64,000 bases of DNA. Source: Octopus vulgaris (Eukaryota). A model generated the notes under the pieces. The model saw only the letters and a list, made by a program, of their open reading frames with translations, ran no database searches and was not told where the DNA came from. Shown in pieces: positions 16,698 through 61,300 of this stretch (position 1 is its first letter; each line of letters begins with the position of its first letter). Position numbers and translations under genes: made by a program. The stretch covers positions 49,848,001 through 49,912,000 of the forward strand of contig OX597835.1 in assembly GCA_951406725.2 (NCBI GenBank), read 5' to 3'.

Positions 16698-18364
16698 GTG
16701 TGTGTGTGTGTGTGCGCGCGCGCGCGCATACATTTATATCTTTTACTTGTTTCAATCATTACACTGTGGCCATGCTGGGGCACCGCCTTGAAGAGTTTTT
16801 AGCCGAATGAATCAACTGCAGTCCTTGTTTTTCTTTTAAGCCTGGTTCTTATCCCATCGCTCTCTTTGGCCGATCTACTAAGTCATGAGAACGTAAACAC
16901 AAGACCGGTTGTCAAGTGGTGGTGGTGGTGGTGGGAGACACACAAACATACACACACACGCACACTCAACTGATACTTGATTTATCGACCCCGAAAGGAC
17001 GAGAGGCACAGCCGACCTCGACGGAATTTGAACTCAGAACGTAAAGACGGACGAAATGCCGCTAAGCCTTTCGTCCGGCGTGCTAACGATTCTGCCAGTT
17101 GGCCGCTTTATAATGCTTCGCCAACATTATTAACAAGATTCACAATCTAACAGGACAGATAATAGCACTACCACTACTACTACCCATACTACAGCAAACT
17201 CTACACACCACCACCATCATCACCACCACCATCATCACCACCACCTACAAATTCCACAAAACACTACAACCGCCCCCGACTACCTCCAAATTCACCAGCA
17301 ACAATGCTACTACCACCACAACGGCCATCGTAAGCAACACACCATCACCACCACCTGCACCAATACCAATACTACTAATACTAAAAGTACCACTACTACC
17401 ACCATCACCATCACTACTATCATCTCCACCAATACCATCAATGTCAATACCACTAACACCACCATTGCCTCCAACTCCACAACAATAATACTGCAACTAC
17501 CACCACCACCACCACCACCACCGCCGCCGCCGCCAACAGTAATACTCATACTACCACCTCCACCACCACTGGCAGCACCATTCGTTCCTTCCTTACCAAT
17601 GGCTGTCAGATATAATGCAATGCTAATCCCTCAGAAAGTGACATCTGCCATTTAAAGGTGGTTGGAGGGGCAGGGGGGGTCCTCTTTCATTTAGTGTGTC
17701 AAAGGTTAGAGAGGAGGGCGGAGTAAGAGAGAGAGAGAGAGAAGAAAGAGAAGGAGAGAGAGAGACACACGGACAGATAGGCAGACAGGGATCATCGAAA
17801 GAGAAACAAGGTTGTTACGGTTGTATTTAAGCCAGGTCAACATCGGTCCAACAAGCATAATAAAAAGCTTTCCAAAGGTGGCCATCTCGTCTTTAACGAC
17901 TACACTATATAATATGTCTCCTTGTATTTTTTTCAAATGATAAGGCGTGATTGGGGTAGATTTTGTTGCTATTTCTAGCAACTTTAGAAACTACGTAGAG
18001 GCACCTTGAAATTTAAACATTGTTTTCACTTGGTCCGTTAATTCCTGATCAAGTGGTAGGGATATCGTCGTGAGCACGGCCTATTTCAGGCCCCTTAAAC
18101 CTGAAGGAACCAAACCCTATTATGGCCTGGCCTGGCCACTGCTGCTTTCTGAAACACACACACACACACACGCACGCACACACATACACAAGCAAACAAA
18201 TACATACACACACAAATACCACATCACACACATACATACGCAAACAAAAATATACATACACATGTACACATGCATACATGCGCACATACACACACATGGT
18301 CATGCTGGGGCACCGCCTTGAAGGATTTTAACCGCAAATAAATCGACCCCAGTACATCTTTTTC

Positions 18365-18590
18365 TATAAAAGGGTATTGTCTTTCATCACGACAATGCCA
18401 GACGCGGCAGAAGTTACTGGGGTCTGCCTGGAAAGTTTTGCACCCTCAGATTTCCACCTGTTTCGGTCTCTTCAGAATTCCTTGAATGGATAGACCTTCA
18501 ACTCTGAAGAGGCTGTAAAAATTTACCTGGAAGAGTTTTACACCGGTAACAACAGGAAATTCTTTGGGCAGGGAAGACTGGATCCACGTT
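18365..18590 (+). mobile_element. mariner transposase fragment
   Basis: IVFHHDNAR..APSDFHLFRSLQNSLNG. Confidence 0.7.
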
Positions 18591-18599
18591 CGAAATATA

Positions 18600-20360
<1,761 letters not shown>

Positions 20361-20628: not shown

Positions 20629-20698
<70 letters not shown>

Positions 20699-20840
20699 CA
20701 ATAAAGATTCAAGTTAATTTAAATGAATTTACTTGAATATGGTACCTAACTTAGATGCACCAAAACAAACTATACGGTTTTAACAATACAGTAATGTGGG
20801 GTGATTATAAGCGAGAAAAAAGCAACAAGAATGGATAGGT

Positions 20841-20931
20841 TTTTAGTACAATCGTTTCATACAAGGACAGGCTTTATTAAAAGTTGCAAAAATTGCAGCA
20901 TATAAACGTGTCCCGTACTCATCAGCTAAAA
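20841..20931 (-). ncRNA. Mirror copy of the type I hammerhead ribozyme
   Basis: Near-exact reverse complement of 21654-21743 (one extra base) in the left arm of the fold-back. Confidence 0.82.
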
Positions 20932-21653
20932 TACATGTGAGTTCTCTAGACATCCTAGTGGTTGAGGCTATACTCATGAAGTAATGTAGATAATTAAGTA
21001 ACATAAACAGATTTCCAAAGTTCATTAAAGTTCTTTAAAGATGATGTACAGTCTTATCACAGAATTTTAAAAAAGTTTTAATAGCATCACAGAGAAGGTG
21101 ACTTAATCCATAGTGTACATATGAATTTCCAGAGATATGAGGAGGGATTACATACCCACAGACGACAAATTTATCCATTGCTAATCACAACGAGGTTTCA
21201 ATTCCTGCTTATTAGCATTACAGAGAGGGTGAATTAATCCTTTGTATAGATGCACAATTAATCCTTTGTATAGATGCACAATTTCCAATGGTGTAGATAA
21301 TGGTGTATCTACACCATTGGAAATTGTGCATCTATACAAAGGATTAATTCACCCTCTCTGTAATGCTAATAAGCAGGAATTGAAACCCACCTCGTTGTGA
21401 TTAGCAATGGATAAATTTGTCGTCTGTGGGTATGTAATCCCTCCTCATATCTCTGGAAATTCATATGTACACTATGGATTAAGTCACCTTCTCTGTGATG
21501 CTATTAAAACTTTTTTAAAATTCTGTGATAAGACTGTACATCATCTTTAAAGAACTTTAATGAACTTTGGAAATCTGTTTATGTTACTTAATTATCTACA
21601 TTACTTCATGAGTATAGCCTCAACCACTAGGATGTCTAGAGAACTCACATGTA

Positions 21654-21743
21654 TTTTAGCTGATGAGTACGGGACACGTTTATATGCTGCAATTTTTGCA
21701 ACTTTAATAAAGCCTGTCCTTGTATGAAACGATTGTACTAAAA
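21654..21743 (+). ncRNA. Type I hammerhead ribozyme motif (Penelope/retrozyme type)
   Basis: Stem I TTTTAG/CTAAAA; CTGATGA at 21660-66; long stem II GTACGGGACA...TGTCCTTGTAT; GAAAC at 21726-30; quasi-palindromic stem III AC-GATT-GT; GTA cleavage triplet at 21735-37. Confidence 0.85.
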
Positions 21744-21773
21744 ACCTATCCATTCTTGTTGCTTTTTTCTCGC

Positions 21774-21813
<40 letters not shown>

Positions 21814-22412
21814 CAATATATATAGCAATATATACGTTTTGTAGAGGGGACATACATTTAGGCAATGTAGCAGATGAAGCGGACAGAGAGAATCGTTTGA
21901 GCGTCAACCAGAATGATTAGTGATGTTTTGTTAGGAAACTTTTCCGCTTAGAGTTCAAATCTCGCCGAAATCCACATCGTTTTCATTCTTCGAGGGTCGA
22001 TAAAGTAAGTACCAGTCAAATACTATGCTAGATTAGAACCAACAGTCGCCTCACCACCACCATCAGGAAATTCCTGACGCCGTACAAACGTAGGAAATCA
22101 CTACGACATAATAAACGAATATGGAATCGCTGTTTGCAAACAAATGACACATTGTCTTTACTCTAAGCACGTGAGTCTGTGGTCTGCGGGGGGTCGACCG
22201 CGTCCTCCGCTTCATTTTTTTGTAAATCACTCATTCTCATTTAATTGTATATATTATAATTGTTCATTCATATATTTCGTCTCATTCGATACCCTGACCC
22301 CAATGTTTGTTTTGTCTGTCCAAGTATCGTCCCCTCTTTTTCTCAACCTCATCGTTAATAAAGAAATTGACTTAACTTGAGAAATTCTTAATTGTTTTTG
22401 AAACATATACAC

Positions 22413-27099: not shown

Positions 27100-28570
27100 C
27101 GTTTGGGTAGCGTCGTTTTAACAAAGAAGACGCCCACATATGAAACATTGGAGGGGAAGCCTCTTTGTACCATCCCCCTCTCACAGCCGAAGACTCCCCC
27201 CCTTTTTCTTCCGTTCGTTCAACTGCGAAATGTTTGCAAGTTGATTGGTGAGATGGGCCTCAGCAGCAACAGCAACAACAAGCTGACCAACGTCCGACTG
27301 CTGGTAGCCGTGGTCCCCCGTTAGAGAGAAGCCACCGTTGCCCCCAACAGCAGCGACAACATATGCTGCACCTGCAGCAGCAGCATCAACAGAAGCACCA
27401 AAAGCACCGGCAGCAGAGTCTCAACCAAGAACTACACTAGCAGCTGTAAACTCAACAAGAGCAGCACCAGATACGGCAGCAGCAAAAGCAGCAAAAGCGA
27501 CAATAGCCCCATCATCATCATCATCATCATCACCAATAGAAAGACAATCAACAGAACAAGGCATCTCTCAACCCAGATTTCCTTCACCGCCTCTCCCAGA
27601 CACAATCACACCCTTGTCGGGGACAGATTCAGCGGAAACTGGGACCTCGAAATGAAGATAATGTGGGGCACCCCACTAGACAGAAAGAAAAACAAAAGGG
27701 AAGCCAAAAATCATCTTACCCCACCCCCACACCAACACACGCCTCAGGAAACACTGAGAACACCTCATACCAAATACAGACACATTCATAACAACATCCG
27801 CCCCCACCAACACCGCCACCGCCACTAACAACTACAACACTACCACTCACAGAAAGAAAACCTAAACGTTAACGACGATCAACCACAACGACACCTTCAG
27901 GCTAGAAAGAACAGCCAATAAAGACATGATGGCCCTCATAGCACGAAGTGAGAATATTGAGAGAGAGGAGGAGATTTTTAGCACCAACACCTTTAAAGGG
28001 CCTGCAGTTGTACTAATGGTGCGGATGTCATTTGAAACATATAAAAACATTAAGGAGAGCTTTCCCTACGACGTGGGAAACCCTAATGTAGATCCCACCA
28101 ATAGGTTTTTGAAGGAGTTCCCAAAGGAACCATCACTAGATATGGAGATGGAACCACACGATCTTTACCAGCCCCGGGGGAGTAATTCCTTCCATTTTCT
28201 TCTTCTTTTTCTCAACTCTTTCCAGCCAACTCGGCGTTTTTTTTTTTTTAAATAAGTTGAATAAATGTACGAATCGTCCTGGTAACAAGGTTGCTTTTTC
28301 AACGACCTTAGGTCACTAGTTATAGTTGTGCCAGAATTTTCGACACGTGCGTAATAGCCCCTATTTTTGATCTATGCATCTCTTAGTCAGCCTGCAATGG
28401 GTGGCAGGATGGCCGTGCTGTTTAGGAAAGGTCTGGGTCTCGAGGTACCAACGATCTTTCTGAACCCGGACGGGTCCAGAAGGTGGTGAGTTTAGACTAG
28501 TGATTGTCTATGCCCTGACTGGGGCAGGGCAGCCAGATTTCTTCAAGCGTGTAGAAGCCTTCCTTTGAAC
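27100..28570 (+). mobile_element. Decayed Tx1/L1-like LINE: low-complexity ORF1 tail and start of APE endonuclease
   Basis: 28260-28565 reads in pieces INVR..FNDLRSL..GGRMAVLFRKGL..FRLVIVYA..QPDFF, resembling L1/Tx1 APE. Upstream ORFs are Ala/Pro/Thr-rich. Boundaries approximate. Confidence 0.55.
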
Positions 28571-28571
28571 A

Positions 28572-28730
28572 TGCCAGATCAAGCCAAGTTCGGTCAGAGA
28601 AGGAGAAGTTTAAGTTAATATCAAGTTTATAATACATTATTAAAGACTTATGAAGTCTTTAATAATGTATTATAAACTTGATATTAACTTAAACTTCTCC
28701 TTCTCTGACCGAACTTGGCTTGATCTGGCA
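28572..28730. repeat. Perfect palindrome, 78-bp arms, 3-nt loop
   Basis: 28572-28649 is the reverse complement of 28653-28730. Confidence 0.95.
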
Positions 28731-29455
28731 CTTGTTCAGGAGAAGTTCTAATTGTTATTTCTTACCTGTATTCACCTGATGAAAATTCTTTTTATATATT
28801 TTTTTTTTTTGCATAATGTAACATTTCTGTTCATCAATAAAAAAAAACACCTCTGCAACAGCTGTAGTGAACCACAATCCATCTATTGTTACTAGTATTA
28901 TATACATAAATATATATGTGTGTGTGTGTGTATTGGGGTGGATCAAAAAATACAAATTTCAAAATTAGTAACCAAGAATCAATATTTTGTTGCAAGTTAG
29001 GGTTAAAAAAAAGGTGTAAAAAGAACTTAACGGGTAAATATTTTTTTCCGCAGGCTCTGCAATGCAACTGAAAATCTTAAAAACCACTATTTTTGGTCGA
29101 ATTTCATTTCACCTAATTTCGAAATTTCAAGTGCGTTGCGGAGCCTCAAGATCTAACTTTTAGAGCTTAAGATTTTAACAGTTTTGCTTTTAAAGGATTT
29201 CACAAAAGAAAATCGATTCTTAACAAGGAATGTATAAAAATAAAATGAGGAATGGCAAACGTGTTATAAATTGATTTTTCATTCATTGATCAAAATTTCA
29301 AGTGGGCTGCAGAGCCTAAAGATGTAAATTTGAGAACTTCAGATTTTAACTCAGTTGTTTTTAAAGGATTTCGTAATAAAAAATTTATTCCTGAAAACAT
29401 ATTTTGAAAATCTATGTAAAAAGTATCTTTTTTGCTCCACCCTAATATGTGAGTA

Positions 29456-29842
29456 TCTCTCTATATATAAACGGCAGTTTGTCTGTGCGTGTTTCTGTGT
29501 GTCTGTTTTCTCGTACCCTCACCCTGACCACGGCTTTCAACCGATTCTGATGAAACTTGACACACACATAGCCCAATGTCATAATTCAAAACTAACGCAG
29601 CGAAAATTTTGAAAAGTTCCCCCAGTTCTGAAAAAAATCGATAAATTCGACATGGGGTCGAGAATAAAAAAAAACAAACCACAGACTGTCTAGGGGACGC
29701 AACTCAACCTTTTTTTACTCTCAAAAAACAATTTACCATAATTTTTTTCCCATTTTTTTGCTATTTTTTGGCTATAACTCTCTAAAGATGCTTTATAGTT
29801 ATTTCCCTTACAAACCTGAGCAACGCCGGGCGATACTGCTAG
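29456..29842 (+). mobile_element. Second copy of the non-autonomous Helitron-like element
   Basis: Highly similar to 18981-19366, with the same TC...hairpin-CTAG termini. Confidence 0.75.
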
Positions 29843-29879
<37 letters not shown>

Positions 29880-30627: not shown

Positions 30628-31242
30628 GGCTGCTGGATGCTCTTTGTAATGCCAGTCACTCTGAGAGTGTAATGGGTGCCTTTTATGTGCCACCGACACA
30701 GGTGCCATTGGCAAAATGTCGTGACTGTGATTTCCCTCAGCTTAGTGACTCTTCTCTAGCACAGCATATTCTTTTTTACTCTAGGCACAAGGCCTGAAAT
30801 TTTTGGGGAGGGGGCCCGTCAATTAGATCGACCCCAGTATGCAACTGGTACTTAATATATCGACCCTGAAAGGATGAAAGGCAAAGTCAACCTCGGCAGA
30901 ATTTGAACTCAGAATGTAAAGACAGACGAAATACTTGACTTTGCCTTTCATCCTTTCAGGGTCGATATATTAAGTACCAGTTGCATACTGGGGTCGATCT
31001 AATTGACGGGCCCCCTCCCCAAAAATTTCAGGCCTTGTGCCTAGAGTAAAAAAGAATATGCTGTGCTAGAGAAGAGTCACTAAGCTGAGGGAAATCACAG
31101 TCACGACATTTTGCCAATGGCACCTGTGTTGGTGGCACCTGTGTCGGTGGCACCTGTGTTGGTGGCACCTGTGTCGGTGGCACATAAAAGGCACCCATTA
31201 CACTCTCAGAGGGACTGGCATTACAAAGAGCATCCAGCAGCC
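30628..31242. repeat. Near-perfect inverted duplication (about 260-bp arms, 44-nt spacer)
   Basis: 30628-30890 mirrored by 30935-31242; right arm has 4 copies of a 15-mer (ggcacctgtgtYggt) versus one in the left. Confidence 0.93.
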
Positions 31243-31896: not shown

Positions 31897-32158
31897 TTAT
31901 TTTTTAGACTTTGATTTTGATGACTTTGATGATTTTGTCTTGGGCGTTCTTTTGGTAAATTTCGGGATCTCTTCATCCAAAAGAGGGGCCAAATGTTTAT
32001 GGTTGTGATCAATTGCCCATTTCGCCGGCAGATAAGCTGGATTCATTGTATCAATGAAATGTTGGCGCCATCGTAGCTGGAATTCTAGCAACTTCTTCGT
32101 CCGTTTCATGTGTTCAACGACCTGGTGCCCATGTGGACTGTAATCAGGATTGCTGACC
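31897..32158 (-). CDS. EXD2: EXD2 terminal exon: VSNPDYSPHGHQVV...WRQHFIDTMNPAYLPAKWAIDHNH...SKSKSKK*
   Basis: ttttag| acceptor; TAA stop at 31899-31897; PHG..WRQHF..P..LP..W..DHNH C-terminal motif. Confidence 0.95.
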
Positions 32159-32331
32159 CTAAAAAAAAGAAAGGGATACAGTGAGAGTGATGTATACGTG
32201 TAAATATCCATGTATCTATCCTGCATGCCTACATGTGTGCATGCACACACGCACACATATAGATACATGTGTATGCATGGCAGCCAGTCATGCACATGGG
32301 CATCCATGTGTTAGGGTGTACATGTGTATGA

Positions 32332-34286: not shown

Positions 34287-37200
34287 AAAAAATGAAGTTT
34301 GAAAATGCCGCTATATTAGATAAATTTTAATTTAACATGTTTCAGTTCTTGAAATAACGAACCTTATCAAAAAAATTTGTTTATATAATAAAGAGAGTCC
34401 ATGCTATATGCTTAAAGAGTATGATTGAACAGTTCATAATTGTGACTTACATTCAATAGAGTCAAATATAAAAAATCCATGTTCTTGAAAAGGCGAGGAG
34501 TTCATTATAGATTTTACCTTGTGTTCCAATGGGAGCAACAGTAATGATTTTTGGTCGGCGTCTGCTGGCATAATTTTGGTAAATTTTGTGATTGTTGGAT
34601 TTATATCAGCTAAGCTGTGGTCTCTAGCACTGTTCACTGACGTCATATAGTTCCAAACCAATCAAAACCCAGCCTCAACGAATATAGTGAAAAGACTCCT
34701 AACTGTATCCTGTTAGGAAACCAACCAAGCGGAACGACAAGTTTGACCACGGAAAAAAAAACGTCACCAATTTTTTGACAAATCGAAATTAGATCTGACC
34801 CATGACTGTATCCTGTTAGGTGGCTAGCCCAGCAGAACGAGTAGTTTGACCACGGAAGAAAAACGTCATCAATGTTTTGATGAATCAGAATCGGGTCTGA
34901 CCCATAACTGTATCTGTGAGGAAACCGACCAAGCAGGGTGACAATAGCTTGACCACTGAGGTAAAACGTCATCAATTTTTTGACGAATCAGAATTAGATC
35001 TGCTCATAGAGAAAGAGATCTGTTTATAAATTTTTCCTTCCCTAAGACATATCACTGCCAGCGTGAGTGACTGTTTAAGGATCTGAGAAATTGTAATTCG
35101 CCCCACCTCCATTATTATAATTCTCTCACTGTGGCCGTAGCAACAGTGACCACGGTGGTTGTAGTAGTAGTGCGAGTTGGGGCAGTCGTAGTGGTTGTGG
35201 TAGAATTTCGTTTTTCTTTTTCGGAAGACCAATGTTTTGTTTTAATATTCCTGGCCCAGGGTGTTCAAACTTGGTCTAAATTTTTTGATGAAATAAAGTT
35301 CTTTATTTTGGCGTTGCGTGAAGGTTACGCTGTCACTGAATTTGTAAAGTGGGTAAGTTGTAAATTTCGGATTTACATTTGCAGCACATCTATCTATGTG
35401 TCCGCTGACCGGTATTTTCCGGTATTCAGGGTTTCTAATTTGTGATTTATGCACCGCCATCCTGTTACGTAAGCTATTTTTTGTATGGCCTATATACTGC
35501 CTATTGCAGCCTGCGCATGTTAAGACATAAATTAAGTTTTCTGATGCACAGGTAAAGTTTGCTCTAATGGTGAACTGATGGCTTTGTTCTAGTATAAATT
35601 CTGAACCTTCTACCAAGATGACACAGATTCCGCAGTTGGGCCTTCCACATTTTCTAACTGCTGGTTTTGTGGTTGATGTTGAGTGCAGTTTAGCTTGGGT
35701 TAAAATCCTTTTCAAGGATTTTGGTTGCCGTTTACTTTTAATGATGGTGTGTGTTTCGAGGATCCGGTTCGTCTTTATATATAAGCTTGGCATTTACATC
35801 ATCATCCTCATCATCTTGTAATGTCCATTCTCCATGCTGGCATGGAGCGGATGGTTTGACAGGAATTGCCCAGCTGGAGGGCTGCCTAAACTCCATTTGT
35901 CTGTTTGACATGGTTTCTATGGCCGAATGCCCTTCCTAATGCCAACCACTTTACAGCATGTACTGGGTGCTTTTACCAAAATTGTGCAGTTAAGCCTGAG
36001 CCTCTTTGATTCTAGGTTTTGTATGTATGTGAGAGGATTTGTGGCCAAGTGGACAGAATGTTGCACTCACAGTTCTGAAATTGTGGTTTCAATTCCTGGA
36101 CCTGGTAGTGTGTCATGTTCTTGAGCAAAACATTTCATCACTGCAGTCCCTTTGACAACTGACATGTGGCACAACATGTAGCTCCTGTGCTGATTTGATG
36201 GAGAGAATGAGCTTAGGTGTAGCATCAAACATTTGTTCACAAATGTAGATTGCGCAACAAGAAATTACAAAACCCTGAGATGTCATCTACAACAGAGAAG
36301 TCCTTTATTCAAATAGGGAGGATTGTATGCTACTACCAAGACGAGAAGATCAAAAGCAAAAAGACAGAAATAGGCAAGATGGTCACAGTTGGAAGAACCT
36401 TTGATAATACATCTAGCAGAAAAGGATTGACCAGGAGGAAAAAGAAAGTGTGAAACACCAAACATTACCACTAATGCCAAAAGGTACTTACTTAGCAGCT
36501 GACCGTATCTTAGCCAAGTCGACATCAATCAGAGATTTGTTGACAGTACCAGCTGTCAAAGGGGCATCACATTCCTCAGCCAGTTTCTGCCGGAGTGTGA
36601 CATCACTGGCGCAGGCCTTCTGGTGACATGTAGGACACATGAGGAGAATATCGTGCGACACATGGTCTTTCATTATGGAGGGAAAATACCTAAAAAATAT
36701 AATAATAATAATAATGTGTCATCATGTACATTGTTTTGTGTTGGTATAAAAGATGGCCAACAGCAAATATTCTGCTCAATGCCACAGATTTGCTTGTCAG
36801 TTGTTTGACCTTAACCAGTTGAGCATGTCCCTTAGTGGCTGACGATATGTGCATCTCTGATCACGAGCAGAAGTAGTAGGGGAGCATCATAGCCATGTGT
36901 TGAGAGGGATTCCTTGGGGTTTGGACAATTCACCTCCGGAAACATGAGTGTTTTGTTCATCCTCTTTAAAAAAACATTCAGGGAGCTTTTGAGCGGGGTG
37001 AACTACTTGACCTGAAGAAAATTCTGAGAGGAGAAGAGGGAGGGGTGTGGAGAGGGAGGGTGTTAAGGGGAGGAGGAGGCGTAATAATAGAGTGGATTAC
37101 TCACTTGCGATACTCATGGGGAATTATATTCTTACGGAGGTAATTCTCGGGTTTACCACAAACAACGCATATGTTCTCCTTCTCCTGTTGATAATAACCT

Positions 37201-58300: not shown

Positions 58301-61300
58301 TTCTGGGTTCAGAACATTGGGCAAGTGTCTTCAACTACGGCCCTGGGCCAACCAAAGCTTTGTGAGTGGATTTAGTAGACGGAAAGTGAAAGAAGCCCAT
58401 TGCATATATATAGATATATGTGTGAGTGTGTGCATGTGTGTGTATGTGTGTGTATGTCTGTGTGTGTCTTTGTTTCTGTGTTTGTCTCCCCCACCACCAC
58501 CACCTGACAGCTGGAGTCGGTGTGTTTATGTCCTTGTAACTTAGCAGTTTGGCAAAAGAGACGAATAGAATAAGTACTTGGCTTAAAAAAGAAACGCTAA
58601 GTCCTGGGATCGATTTAGTTATCTGTTCCTTTCTCCTTCCGAAGAAAGAAAGTAGTAATGTCTACTTATTGAACTAGCGTTCCAAGTGGCGGCTTGTCAG
58701 ATATGTGTACCATCTCTGATTAAAGAAGGGGGAGGGGGAGAGAGTGACAGTGACAGAGAATGTCCCATTTCTTTCCTCTTCCCAAACAATAATTCTTACT
58801 GCCTCAACGACTTCCACCTATTTAACAGTAGCAGGAATTGAAATTCTAACTTTAGCCTCAACATAGAAGTCCATTGACCCAAAAAACATCCTATTACGCA
58901 TGGCTATACATATGTTTACATGGATATCTGCAATTATTACTGATCATAATTTTCTTTTCTCCCCATTCTACGGAAATTCTTCAAATGCCTGACAGTGGAA
59001 CCATGATGGGCGGCAAGATGATAAAGGGAGGTAACATACAGCCAACTTGGGAGGAGTTGTCTCCCTTAGTAAAACAACGATCTTCTTATAGCGACTCTGA
59101 AGTATTGTAAATATTCAGAAACAACAGCCAAATATCACAACGCCGGACTTCAATTTCCGACCATTGAAACAAACAAACAAACAAATAATAAATAAACAAA
59201 CCTATTGATTAAATTGTTCTCTGCTGATTTTATTGATACCGGGATTTAAGCTCAAAAAAGACTTAACTAAACACCTCAAAAGAATTTTGTCTCCTATTTC
59301 CCGCTTTTAATAATAATAATAATAATAATGAAATTATTGTATACAGTGCTCAGATGCACCACAACTTGTCAAAAGTGCGTATAGAGAATATGCAGTAATG
59401 TACAAATGTCTGAGAAATGAACAGTGTATGAGTCAGATACATGTTTGCATGTGTATGGAGGAGAGAAAATCAGGTGTAGTGTTGGCGAATCTCAGGAAGC
59501 ATGGAAGTTTTGAAGGATGCGGTGCTCCGACAACTAACAACTGATGCTGGCAGTTTGTTCCATGCTTCAGCAACTCTTAGCGTGAAAAAATGTTTCTGAA
59601 AGTCATGGGAGCTGTGCTGTCTTCTGACTTTGTAAACATGTCCACAGGTGTTAGACAGATGGAGTTTGAAAAGGTGCTCAGAGTTATTGTTTGTAAGATA
59701 GTTAATAATTTTATGGGTGTCTGCCAAGTCAGTTGCCAGATGTCGGAGTTTCAATGTATCCATGCCCAGGGAAGTAAGGCATTCATAATATGGCAAATGC
59801 CTGATGGAGGGTATTCTCTTGGTTGCACGTCGCTGAACGGTTTCCAGACGATTAATATCCTGGGCAAGATAGGGGTTTCAGACCGGTGATGCAAATTCCA
59901 GGTGAGGCCGCACCATAGCTATATAAAGCTGCAGATAGATAGCCAGAGAGCGGCTCACTTGGTGAGTGGTGCCAAGACACCCTCAGCCTTCTTGGCAATT
60001 TTAGCGATGTGTTTTGTCCAACGCAAATCACTGTCAACAATAACACCCGGGTCACGTTCACATGAAGACTTTTTGAGATTAGTGTTGTGGAGGGAGTAAG
60101 TAGACACCAAAATGCATGGTGGTACATTTGTCCACAGCCAGCTTGAGTTGCCACTCCATGATCCACTGCTGCATTGTGTCCAGGTCTGATTGCAATAAAG
60201 ATCTATAGTGTACAGGATCTGTCCTCTTTATTTCGAGGTACAGCTTCATGTCATCTGCATATTTCAGCACAGTGGCATTCTTTAAGTTGGCATCTTTGTC
60301 ATTAACATATGCAACAAATAAAAGGGGGCCACGAACAGATCCCTGTGGTTCACCAGATGTCATCTCATAGGATGAAGAGTGCTGTCCTAGAACTGTGACA
60401 ACCTCTTTTCGGCTGATAATGAAGGACTTCAACCAGTTATAAAGATCGTCTCTTACACCCATTGCAGAGAGTTTCACCATAAGTCTTTTGTGTGGCACAG
60501 AATTGAAAGCCTTAGCAAAGTCTAGGTAAACAACATTCACCCAGGATCCGCGATCAGTGATTCGGGTAATGTCCTCAAGAAACTCAATGAGTTGATTACA
60601 GCAGCTATCTCCCAAATTGCACTATTGGGTGGTTTTTTTGTGCTTGCGTGGTACCGATGCTGCACATGCCATCCATATTGAATTCAGAATGTTCTGGAGT
60701 ATAGTGTTCACATCTCCAGAGGCACAAAATTCGAGCCAGCTTGGGCATCGCAGCTCGGTACAATAAGAGTTCCAGTCTGCTTTATTCCAGTCGAAGCAGG
60801 CAGTTTGAAGATGGTTGTGGTTTTTGTTACAACCAATCAGAGACAAGTTGGCCATGATCATGGAATGATCAGAGTCACCTAAAGGTTCTTCGGTAGTGAC
60901 ACTAATAATTGTTTCAGGAGAAGCAGTAAATAACAGATCCAAAGTGTTGTTACCCCTTGTGGAGGAGGTAACGACTTGGGACCAATTTGAATTCAGTACC
61001 AGTTCAAAGAAAGGATTTGCACTTTGCAGCCAACAGAGGGCCTCCCAGTCAATCCCCACCAACATCTCCTGTCCCGGTTTTACTTATTGAATACCTAATT
61101 CTCGTCGACAGAATTTTGGAAGGAATATCCACCCCTCAAAGAGCCATGCCCCTTGAGTAAAGAAAAGTGGTTGAAAGTGAGACCAGGGCAAAAATTGAAA
61201 ATTTGAAAAAGAAAAGAAAAAAACTTCAGAATTGTAATATCCGTTGTCTGAACTACACGATTACTAAAAAGACGCAGGCGTGGCTGTGTGCTAAGAACTA

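Follow-up and report, generated by a model that had tools for sequence, protein, structure and literature searches.

The window, that is the whole stretch of 64,000 nucleotides of Octopus vulgaris DNA analysed here (contig OX597835.1), contains a fold-back of about 1.1 kb, in which two arms lie head-to-head within (TA)n. The following features were identified, where "family" refers to the repeat family to which the arms are assigned below.

20632–20695: (TA)32, left flank, the target microsatellite
20696–20810, minus strand: one-sided 3′ extension ("tail") of 110–115 nt, the long end of the family, partnerless in the right arm
20806–20810, minus strand: internal TATAA, the recurrent short end of the family; the right arm stops at the mirror position
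20811–21299, minus strand: left arm, a 5′-truncated copy with its ribozyme-sense strand on the minus strand
20841–20931, minus strand: type I hammerhead motif, mirror copy (C3 20925, G12 20858, A15.1 20855, H17 20847)
21078–21263: two diverged internal repeats, about 79% alike, with a period of 131 nt in the left and 135 nt in the right arm, without a hammerhead
21232–21279: exact 24-nt tandem duplication, left arm only
21299–21306: inversion junction, eight bases foreign to the family sequence; family contigs diverge after 21298
21306–21773, plus strand: right arm, an inverted 5′-truncated copy stopping at the short end, with its ribozyme-sense strand on the plus strand
21654–21743, plus strand: type I hammerhead motif found with a motif descriptor, predicted cut after 21737
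21775–21824: (TA)n, right flank

Structure of the Fold-Back

Between the two arms, 464 bases are paired, free of substitutions but with three indels, and a central loop of 6 nt (21300–21305) is enclosed. The left arm has one additional nucleotide at 20879 as well as the 24-nt duplication, and the right arm has four additional nucleotides at 21388–21391. A direct repeat of 9 nt takes in the loop (21287–21295 recurs at 21299–21307), and the eight central bases, a repeat of 21287–21294, appear to be a templated insert. An earlier reading of the letters alone, called the original prediction in the following, had described near-perfect inverted arms with a 6-nt loop, about 470 bp of potential double-stranded RNA and (TA)n on both sides, all of which agrees with this layout. 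Small indels between the arms had also been noted, correctly for the 24-nt duplication on the left and the 4-nt insert on the right, and the single nucleotide at 20879 had been missed.

The original prediction had found no credible reading frame, which holds for the visible part of the sequence: the longest stop-free frame of the fold-back has 63 codons, and three right-arm peptides of the most open frame gave no Pfam family at the curated cut-off. A coding origin of the arm was considered, as this frame has only three stops, but was rejected, since the common stop-codon variant is still a stop and Pfam returned only a sub-threshold DUF223 match.

In the right (TA)n flank, two GCAAT interruptions were found (21813–21829), and the same letters occur at the long end of the element (20698–20702). 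They possibly reflect abortive priming at the long end, or chance.

A Dispersed Repeat Family

Contigs of four public runs (X1, X2, X4, and X11; contigs only) were aligned to positions 20690–21340 at a likeness of at least 85%. One arm was matched by 3716, 916, 1014, and 70 contigs, respectively, and at least half of the sampled words of one arm were found in 20 runs from 10 studies with five organism labels. Judged by these matches, the fold-back sequence is part of a longer, high-copy repeat family. The copies are 5′-truncated and dispersed, with thousands of contigs and other flanks.

Among the 24 of 197 loose ends that are listed, at least 10 contigs of X1 and at least 4 of X4 depart from the window sequence beyond 21298. 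The 30 bases seen of this continuation resemble the internal repeat at 21121–21150, like a further unit, and no reverse transcriptase (RT) or GIY-YIG frame linked to the family was found in the visible 600 nt, which are non-coding, and these 30 further bases. As other copies run on past 21298, the family sequence is 5′-truncated at the centre, and the fold-back is a product of insertion. The 1.1-kb palindrome had been regarded as the element itself, which is not borne out, since copies continue past its centre in X1 and X4. Furthermore, in each of the three DNA-like runs the summed depth is higher at the ribozyme and declines on the way to the centre, in agreement with 5′ truncation, contig depth not being a copy number.

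At least 22 contigs of X1 pass into (TA)n immediately before 20806, which mirrors the end of the right arm, and one X11 contig does so before 20814. Joins of the long end to (TA)n are single listed ends, before 20691 in X1 and, with a different flank, before 20695 in X11. The family therefore has two recurrent 3′ ends beside (TA)n, at a distance of about 110 bases from each other. The proposed targeting of (TA)n gains support from the X1 contigs that meet the microsatellite where the short arm ends. No strand-change joint occurs among the listed loose ends (24 of 197) of the four runs, neither for the junction of this fold-back nor for fold-backs at other loci. X11 has no depth over 21240–21340 and is therefore silent on the junction.

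Hammerhead Motifs

The motif of the right arm is composed of stem I (21654–21659), CUGAUGA (21660–21666, C3 being 21660), stem II (21667–21725), and GAAA (21726–21729), followed by helix III with the sequence AC-GAUU-GU, the cleavage triplet GUA (21735–21737), and stem I′ (21738–21743). Both motifs read outwards from the centre, lie near the 3′ end of the sense strand, and are 722 bp apart.

A descriptor demanding the hammerhead core, at least five Watson-Crick pairs in stem I and at least four pairs in stem II, had exactly two matches in the 64-kb window, one in each arm; it had none in 100 dinucleotide-shuffled windows and none in 3000 shuffled arms. The type I core CUGANGA, GAAA, and UH as well as helices I–III are present in both motifs. 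This confirms the claim of a complete type I hammerhead in each arm, as the descriptor finds precisely these two and nothing in the shuffles. The Rfam scan (E up to 1) matched no hammerhead model; its 27 matches were miRNA-type hairpins and microsatellite matches, all below the gathering score, and were rejected. A 22-nt ribozyme motif had no exact match in metagenome and viral contigs.

In both arms the pair 10.1–11.1 is a G-U wobble and not G-C, and a G10.1-C11.1 pair is described as highly conserved in motifs of Penelope-like elements (PLEs; PMC4209133). No common variant was found at this site among 40 of the 50 variant rows of the four runs. At the 13 core positions the DNA runs likewise have no common variant among the rows shown, which is not significant with only 7 of about 95 positions varying.

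As a monomer, the ribozyme fold has a free energy of −13.9 kcal/mol versus −17.4 kcal/mol for the lowest-energy fold, and the pair probability of stem I in 21560–21775 is 0.002. Helix III consists of two pairs and a 4-base loop and is self-complementary through G-U pairs, with a duplex energy of −5.8 kcal/mol. A variant of loop III, which makes up 17–45% of the depth in all four runs, turns helix III into a perfect palindrome, as expected for dimer-type motifs. The idea that the palindromic helix III suits dimers is thus supported by its self-complementarity and by this variant. The hammerhead is the ordinary 3′-end motif of the family and is predicted to be weak on its own and to work as a dimer or with the assistance of a protein.

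Since the two motifs lie on opposite strands, a single transcript never carries a dimer in cis. Whichever strand is transcribed, the antisense arm is copied into RNA ahead of the sense ribozyme, and read-through RNA is therefore predicted to pair and to mask the ribozyme. When folded, the plus transcript formed a single long hairpin (−838 kcal/mol), in which the motif is covered. Folding accordingly predicts masked ribozymes at this locus, except for transcripts that start inside the element. The ribozyme is here likely a passenger, with read-through RNA forming a 464-bp hairpin that would hide it and would be a likely substrate of ADAR.

A Diverged Relative and Neighboring Palindromes

A second, diverged relative of the family was identified in the window.

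18599–18762, minus strand: whole tail and a loop-less fold-back of 29 bp, 70% alike over 136 columns, between TA runs

The tail 20696–20810 is homologous throughout to 18599–18730. The relative is truncated before the ribozyme, has its right end at the same TTATAA, and folds back at a different point. Directly to its left, 18300–18590 is a decayed remnant of a transposase, which from its translation we take to be mariner-like.

In addition, two fold-backs without a hammerhead were found. The first one (30628–31242) has arms of about 263 bp that differ by one substitution and by a tandem gain of 45 nt in one of them, and a loop of about 44 nt; its DNA is presumably SINE-like. The second one (28566–28738) has about 82 perfectly paired bases and a loop of 4 nt. 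Together with the hammerhead-bearing fold-back, three young palindromes are thus located within 11 kb, and the presence of two near-perfect hammerhead-free fold-backs within 10 kb indicates that palindromes arise here by other routes too.

Further Elements in the Window

On the minus strand at 34700–35793, a fragment of a GIY-YIG endonuclease (Pfam PF01541, 35245–35793) was identified, behind which lie three repeats of 103 bp whose hammerhead-like core is decayed. We assume this fragment to be Penelope-like; as a parent of the fold-back, 14 kb away, it was rejected, since the two share no sequence.

Three elements with related ends, a short hairpin followed by CTAGT, adjoin (TA)n at 18979–19367 (plus strand), 19640–20360 (minus strand), and 29454–29864 (plus strand), and 18979–19388 is 94% alike to 29454–29864. 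These elements, presumably of the Helitron/Helentron type, use the same TA tracts as the family of the fold-back. Furthermore, a broken LINE-type element with an RVT_1 domain (60082–60621) is located at 59470–61083 on the minus strand.

None of 73 stop-free frames in 1–45 kb gave a Pfam family. Two stop-free frames of ordinary composition, 31897–32310 (minus strand) and 27866–28255 (plus strand), are possibly host exons; neither had a Pfam family or an exact look-up match, and 31897–32310 had no PDB match.

Origin of the Two Arms

Both arms share the letter of the window, against the majority of X1 and X4, at 20895, 21103, 21116, 21156, 21163, and 21181, six sites in all. The window letter at 21156 makes up 0.03% of the X1 depth and is absent in X2, X4, and X11. 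Such minority letters common to both arms indicate that the arms come from one source. The four extra bases of the right arm (21388–21391) occur in family contigs of all four runs and, since each arm also has an indel of its own, the arms are not simple copies of one another. Both are directed outwards, share one stop base within the longer family sequence, and finish at the two recurrent ends about 110 nt apart.

It is probable that the locus consists of two head-to-head, 5′-truncated 3′ ends of the high-copy family, likely placed into (TA)n by the RT-endonuclease of a PLE through twin priming. By analogy with the purified Poseidon protein of the anole, the enzyme would nick the TA tract on both strands, and a cDNA would be primed from each nick. 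One cDNA would begin at the long end and the other at the internal short end, on the same or a sister RNA template; both would halt at the template's 5′ end and be joined via the short templated insert. The one-sided tail would then be given by the distance between the two RT starts. Identical stop points on both arms are, however, also given by hairpin self-priming. When a twin-primed and a self-primed second arm are taken together, a Penelope-type insertion is highly probable.

Self-priming of the second arm, from one cDNA begun at the long end, is a possible but clearly less probable route. It would involve a 9-nt slip, a fold-back via a hairpin of 2 bp with a 6-nt loop, copying up to the internal TATAA, annealing to (TA)n, and later indels. 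Such a course would explain the symmetric stop points in both copies of the window, the minority letters shared by the arms, and the short end TATAA, which matches the target; self-priming has been proposed for junctions of this type (PMC3846280), and the hammerhead-free fold-back 30628–31242 likewise has a large tandem gain and a single substitution. However, the right arm is devoid of the 24-nt duplication and retains four bases found in family contigs of four runs, so that three later indels without any substitution would be required, and the extension seen in vitro takes place on both strands, with two RT starts (PMC11167929).

Three further explanations fit worse than a twin-primed insertion, the main reason being that it is the short end of the family at which the right arm stops. 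A one-armed copy could have been doubled later when DNA repair of a generic kind folded it back, a course that is also possible for 30628–31242; the near-perfect hammerhead-free fold-backs 28566–28738 and 30628–31242 speak for such a process, but the right arm stops precisely at the recurrent short end, joining (TA)n, and the relative 18599–18762 stops likewise. Repair is not expected to choose that point twice, which makes this origin very unlikely.

Less likely still is a non-autonomous mobile unit, the 1.1-kb palindrome being copied whole with one ribozyme per strand. The missing ORF and the young, near-perfect arms are in line with it, and non-autonomous PLE derivatives exist (PMC8557442; bioRxiv 10.64898/2026.07.22.740005). 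Against it, family contigs pass the centre and depth drops towards it, the relative 18599–18762 folds back elsewhere, the letters common to both arms are seldom or never seen in the family, and the hairpin would mask both ribozymes.

The least likely explanation is a fold-back artefact of library or assembly: the junction is not among the listed ends of any independent run, the arms are free of substitutions and their indel-only differences resemble consensus errors of long reads, and other near-perfect palindromes lie nearby, but the right arm is no mirror, missing tail and 24-nt duplication and having four family bases, and it finishes at the family's short end beside (TA)n. The claim that the fold-back is not a simple read chimera is thus probably right, given the indels, the absence of the tail on the right and the short end of the family.

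Comparison with Known Systems

The fold-back is likely built and working like a Penelope-type insertion, its membership being based on the anatomy of the insertion. The kinship with Penelope proposed in the original prediction is supported by this anatomy, namely 5′ truncation, an inverted truncated copy, the one-sided tail and (TA)n. PLE insertions are 5′-truncated and often have an inverted truncated copy next to them as well as a tail of 30–40 bp at one end, and the Naiad and Hydra families favor (TA)n (PMC8557442). Palindromes at head-to-head junctions are common and have been interpreted as self-priming (PMC3846280). Inverted pLTRs and 3′ extensions are also described in a curation guide (PMC8969392). 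Several features of endonuclease-bearing PLEs are present here: a type I hammerhead motif near the 3′ end on the sense strand, 5′-truncated dispersed copies, a head-to-head inverted 5′-truncated copy (in the window), the one-sided tail, and a (TA)n or AT-rich target. With insertions of such elements as far as described (PMC8557442; PMC3846280), the locus shares the head-to-head arms, 5′ truncation, one-sided extension, (TA)n, and the hammerhead near the 3′ end; it differs in that its tail is about 110 nt long versus 30–40, that is about threefold, and that no ORF was seen.

In Schistosoma mansoni, dual minimal hammerheads on opposite strands, 100–700 bp apart, were ascribed to truncated PLEs in 2014 (PMC4209133). 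The arrangement found here (722 bp), the short palindromic helix III, and the long helix II are the same. In the octopus motif, helix III has 2 bp and a 4-nt loop, helix II has about 59 nt with internal loops, the pair 10.1–11.1 is G-U, and there is no extra base after A9.

The purified Poseidon protein of Anolis carolinensis cuts and extends both strands of AT-rich DNA. Reverse transcription of the Poseidon element PAc starts at two internal sites, the spacing of which equals the tail, and its hammerhead needs protein and is dispensable for insertion in vitro (PMC11167929). Shared with PAc are the two ends that define the tail, the AT-rich target and the position of the hammerhead upstream of the ends. 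In contrast, the ORF of PAc starts at stem II of the ribozyme, whereas here no open frame follows the ribozyme, and the RT start sites are deduced here from contig ends.

Like the animal non-LTR retrozymes described so far in PMC7229834 and bioRxiv 10.64898/2026.07.22.740005, the sequence is non-coding, has a type I hammerhead and is related to PLEs. Their units are arranged head-to-tail with a ribozyme in each, whereas the arms here are head-to-head with one ribozyme per strand. An assignment to these retrozymes was rejected, as there is one motif per strand and the internal repeats are free of motifs. A MITE or foldback DNA transposon is a fixed unit bounded by symmetric terminal inverted repeats; this was rejected as well, since the ends are asymmetric and copies run past the centre.

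With the octopus Naiad and Hydra-1_Obim (PMC8557442 supplement) the family has the (TA)n preference in common, and a full hammerhead is located close to the 3′ end of Hydra; the hammerhead listed for Hydra-1_Obim differs from the motif found here in all stems. Naiads are described as lacking canonical hammerheads (PMC8557442), and with the complete core present here a Naiad PLE was rejected. Eight motifs of 10–13 nt had no match in the accessible text of the PMC8557442 supplement, in which line breaks could hide one, and the published octopus Naiad and Hydra families were rejected as the parent. For Octopus vulgaris thirty recently active Penelope families have been reported, in a main text that is, in its accessible part, silent on hammerheads (PMC13282606); the family may already be contained in the repeat library of that study or in Repbase/Dfam.

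Editing-Like Changes in X11

X11 is guessed to be an RNA run, none of the runs being recorded as RNA, and comes from a different individual than the DNA-like runs. In the variant table, of which 40 of 50 rows were seen, changes were called run-specific if they reached at least 10% in X11 and less than 1% in the three other runs. All nine such changes are A-to-G, eight on the ribozyme-sense strand and one on the opposite strand, versus 5 of 28 rows that are common in DNA (Fisher p = 1.6e-5, 40 of 50 rows); this p value overstates the difference, since each site is based on 2–6 contigs and several sites perhaps share contigs. With a cut-off of 5%, 10 of 12 X11-specific rows are A-to-G. The A-to-G spectra of the whole runs are weaker, 20 of 47 in X11 versus 4 of 27 (p = 0.02) and 4 of 20 (p = 0.10).

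Among the editing-like sites, given here by the matching left-arm positions, are three A's in stem I (20842–20844), the A of the cleavage site (20847), A15.1 (20855), and three A's in stem II (20860, 20909, and 20916). They likely represent ADAR editing of family RNA, which does not necessarily come from the locus studied here. Hyper-editing targets near-perfect double-stranded RNA, Penelope is massively edited in a lizard, and the octopus is among the most edited animals (PMC5625713). No paper on ADAR control of retroelement ribozymes was found in the open-access literature searched.

A bolder, rather unlikely reading is that the family, with its threefold long tail, acts as a genome-wide maker of near-perfect hairpins, which the host ADAR uses to silence the ribozyme through edits in stem I, at A15.1, and at the A of the cleavage site. 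If true, editing would act directly on the catalytic RNA of a retroelement, and fold-back insertions would be a main source of the very high hyper-editing reported for the octopus.

Significance

The inverted arrangement of truncated copies has already been described, and the locus is an ordinary, clean, and young example of it. Mildly new are the tail of about 110 nt and the editing-like changes in the ribozyme core. With two ends 110 nt apart and changes that are shared between or private to the arms, a genome-wide survey could separate twin priming from hairpin self-priming at this step of Penelope transposition. Finally, the editing-like changes in the core make the control of retroelement ribozymes by ADAR testable.
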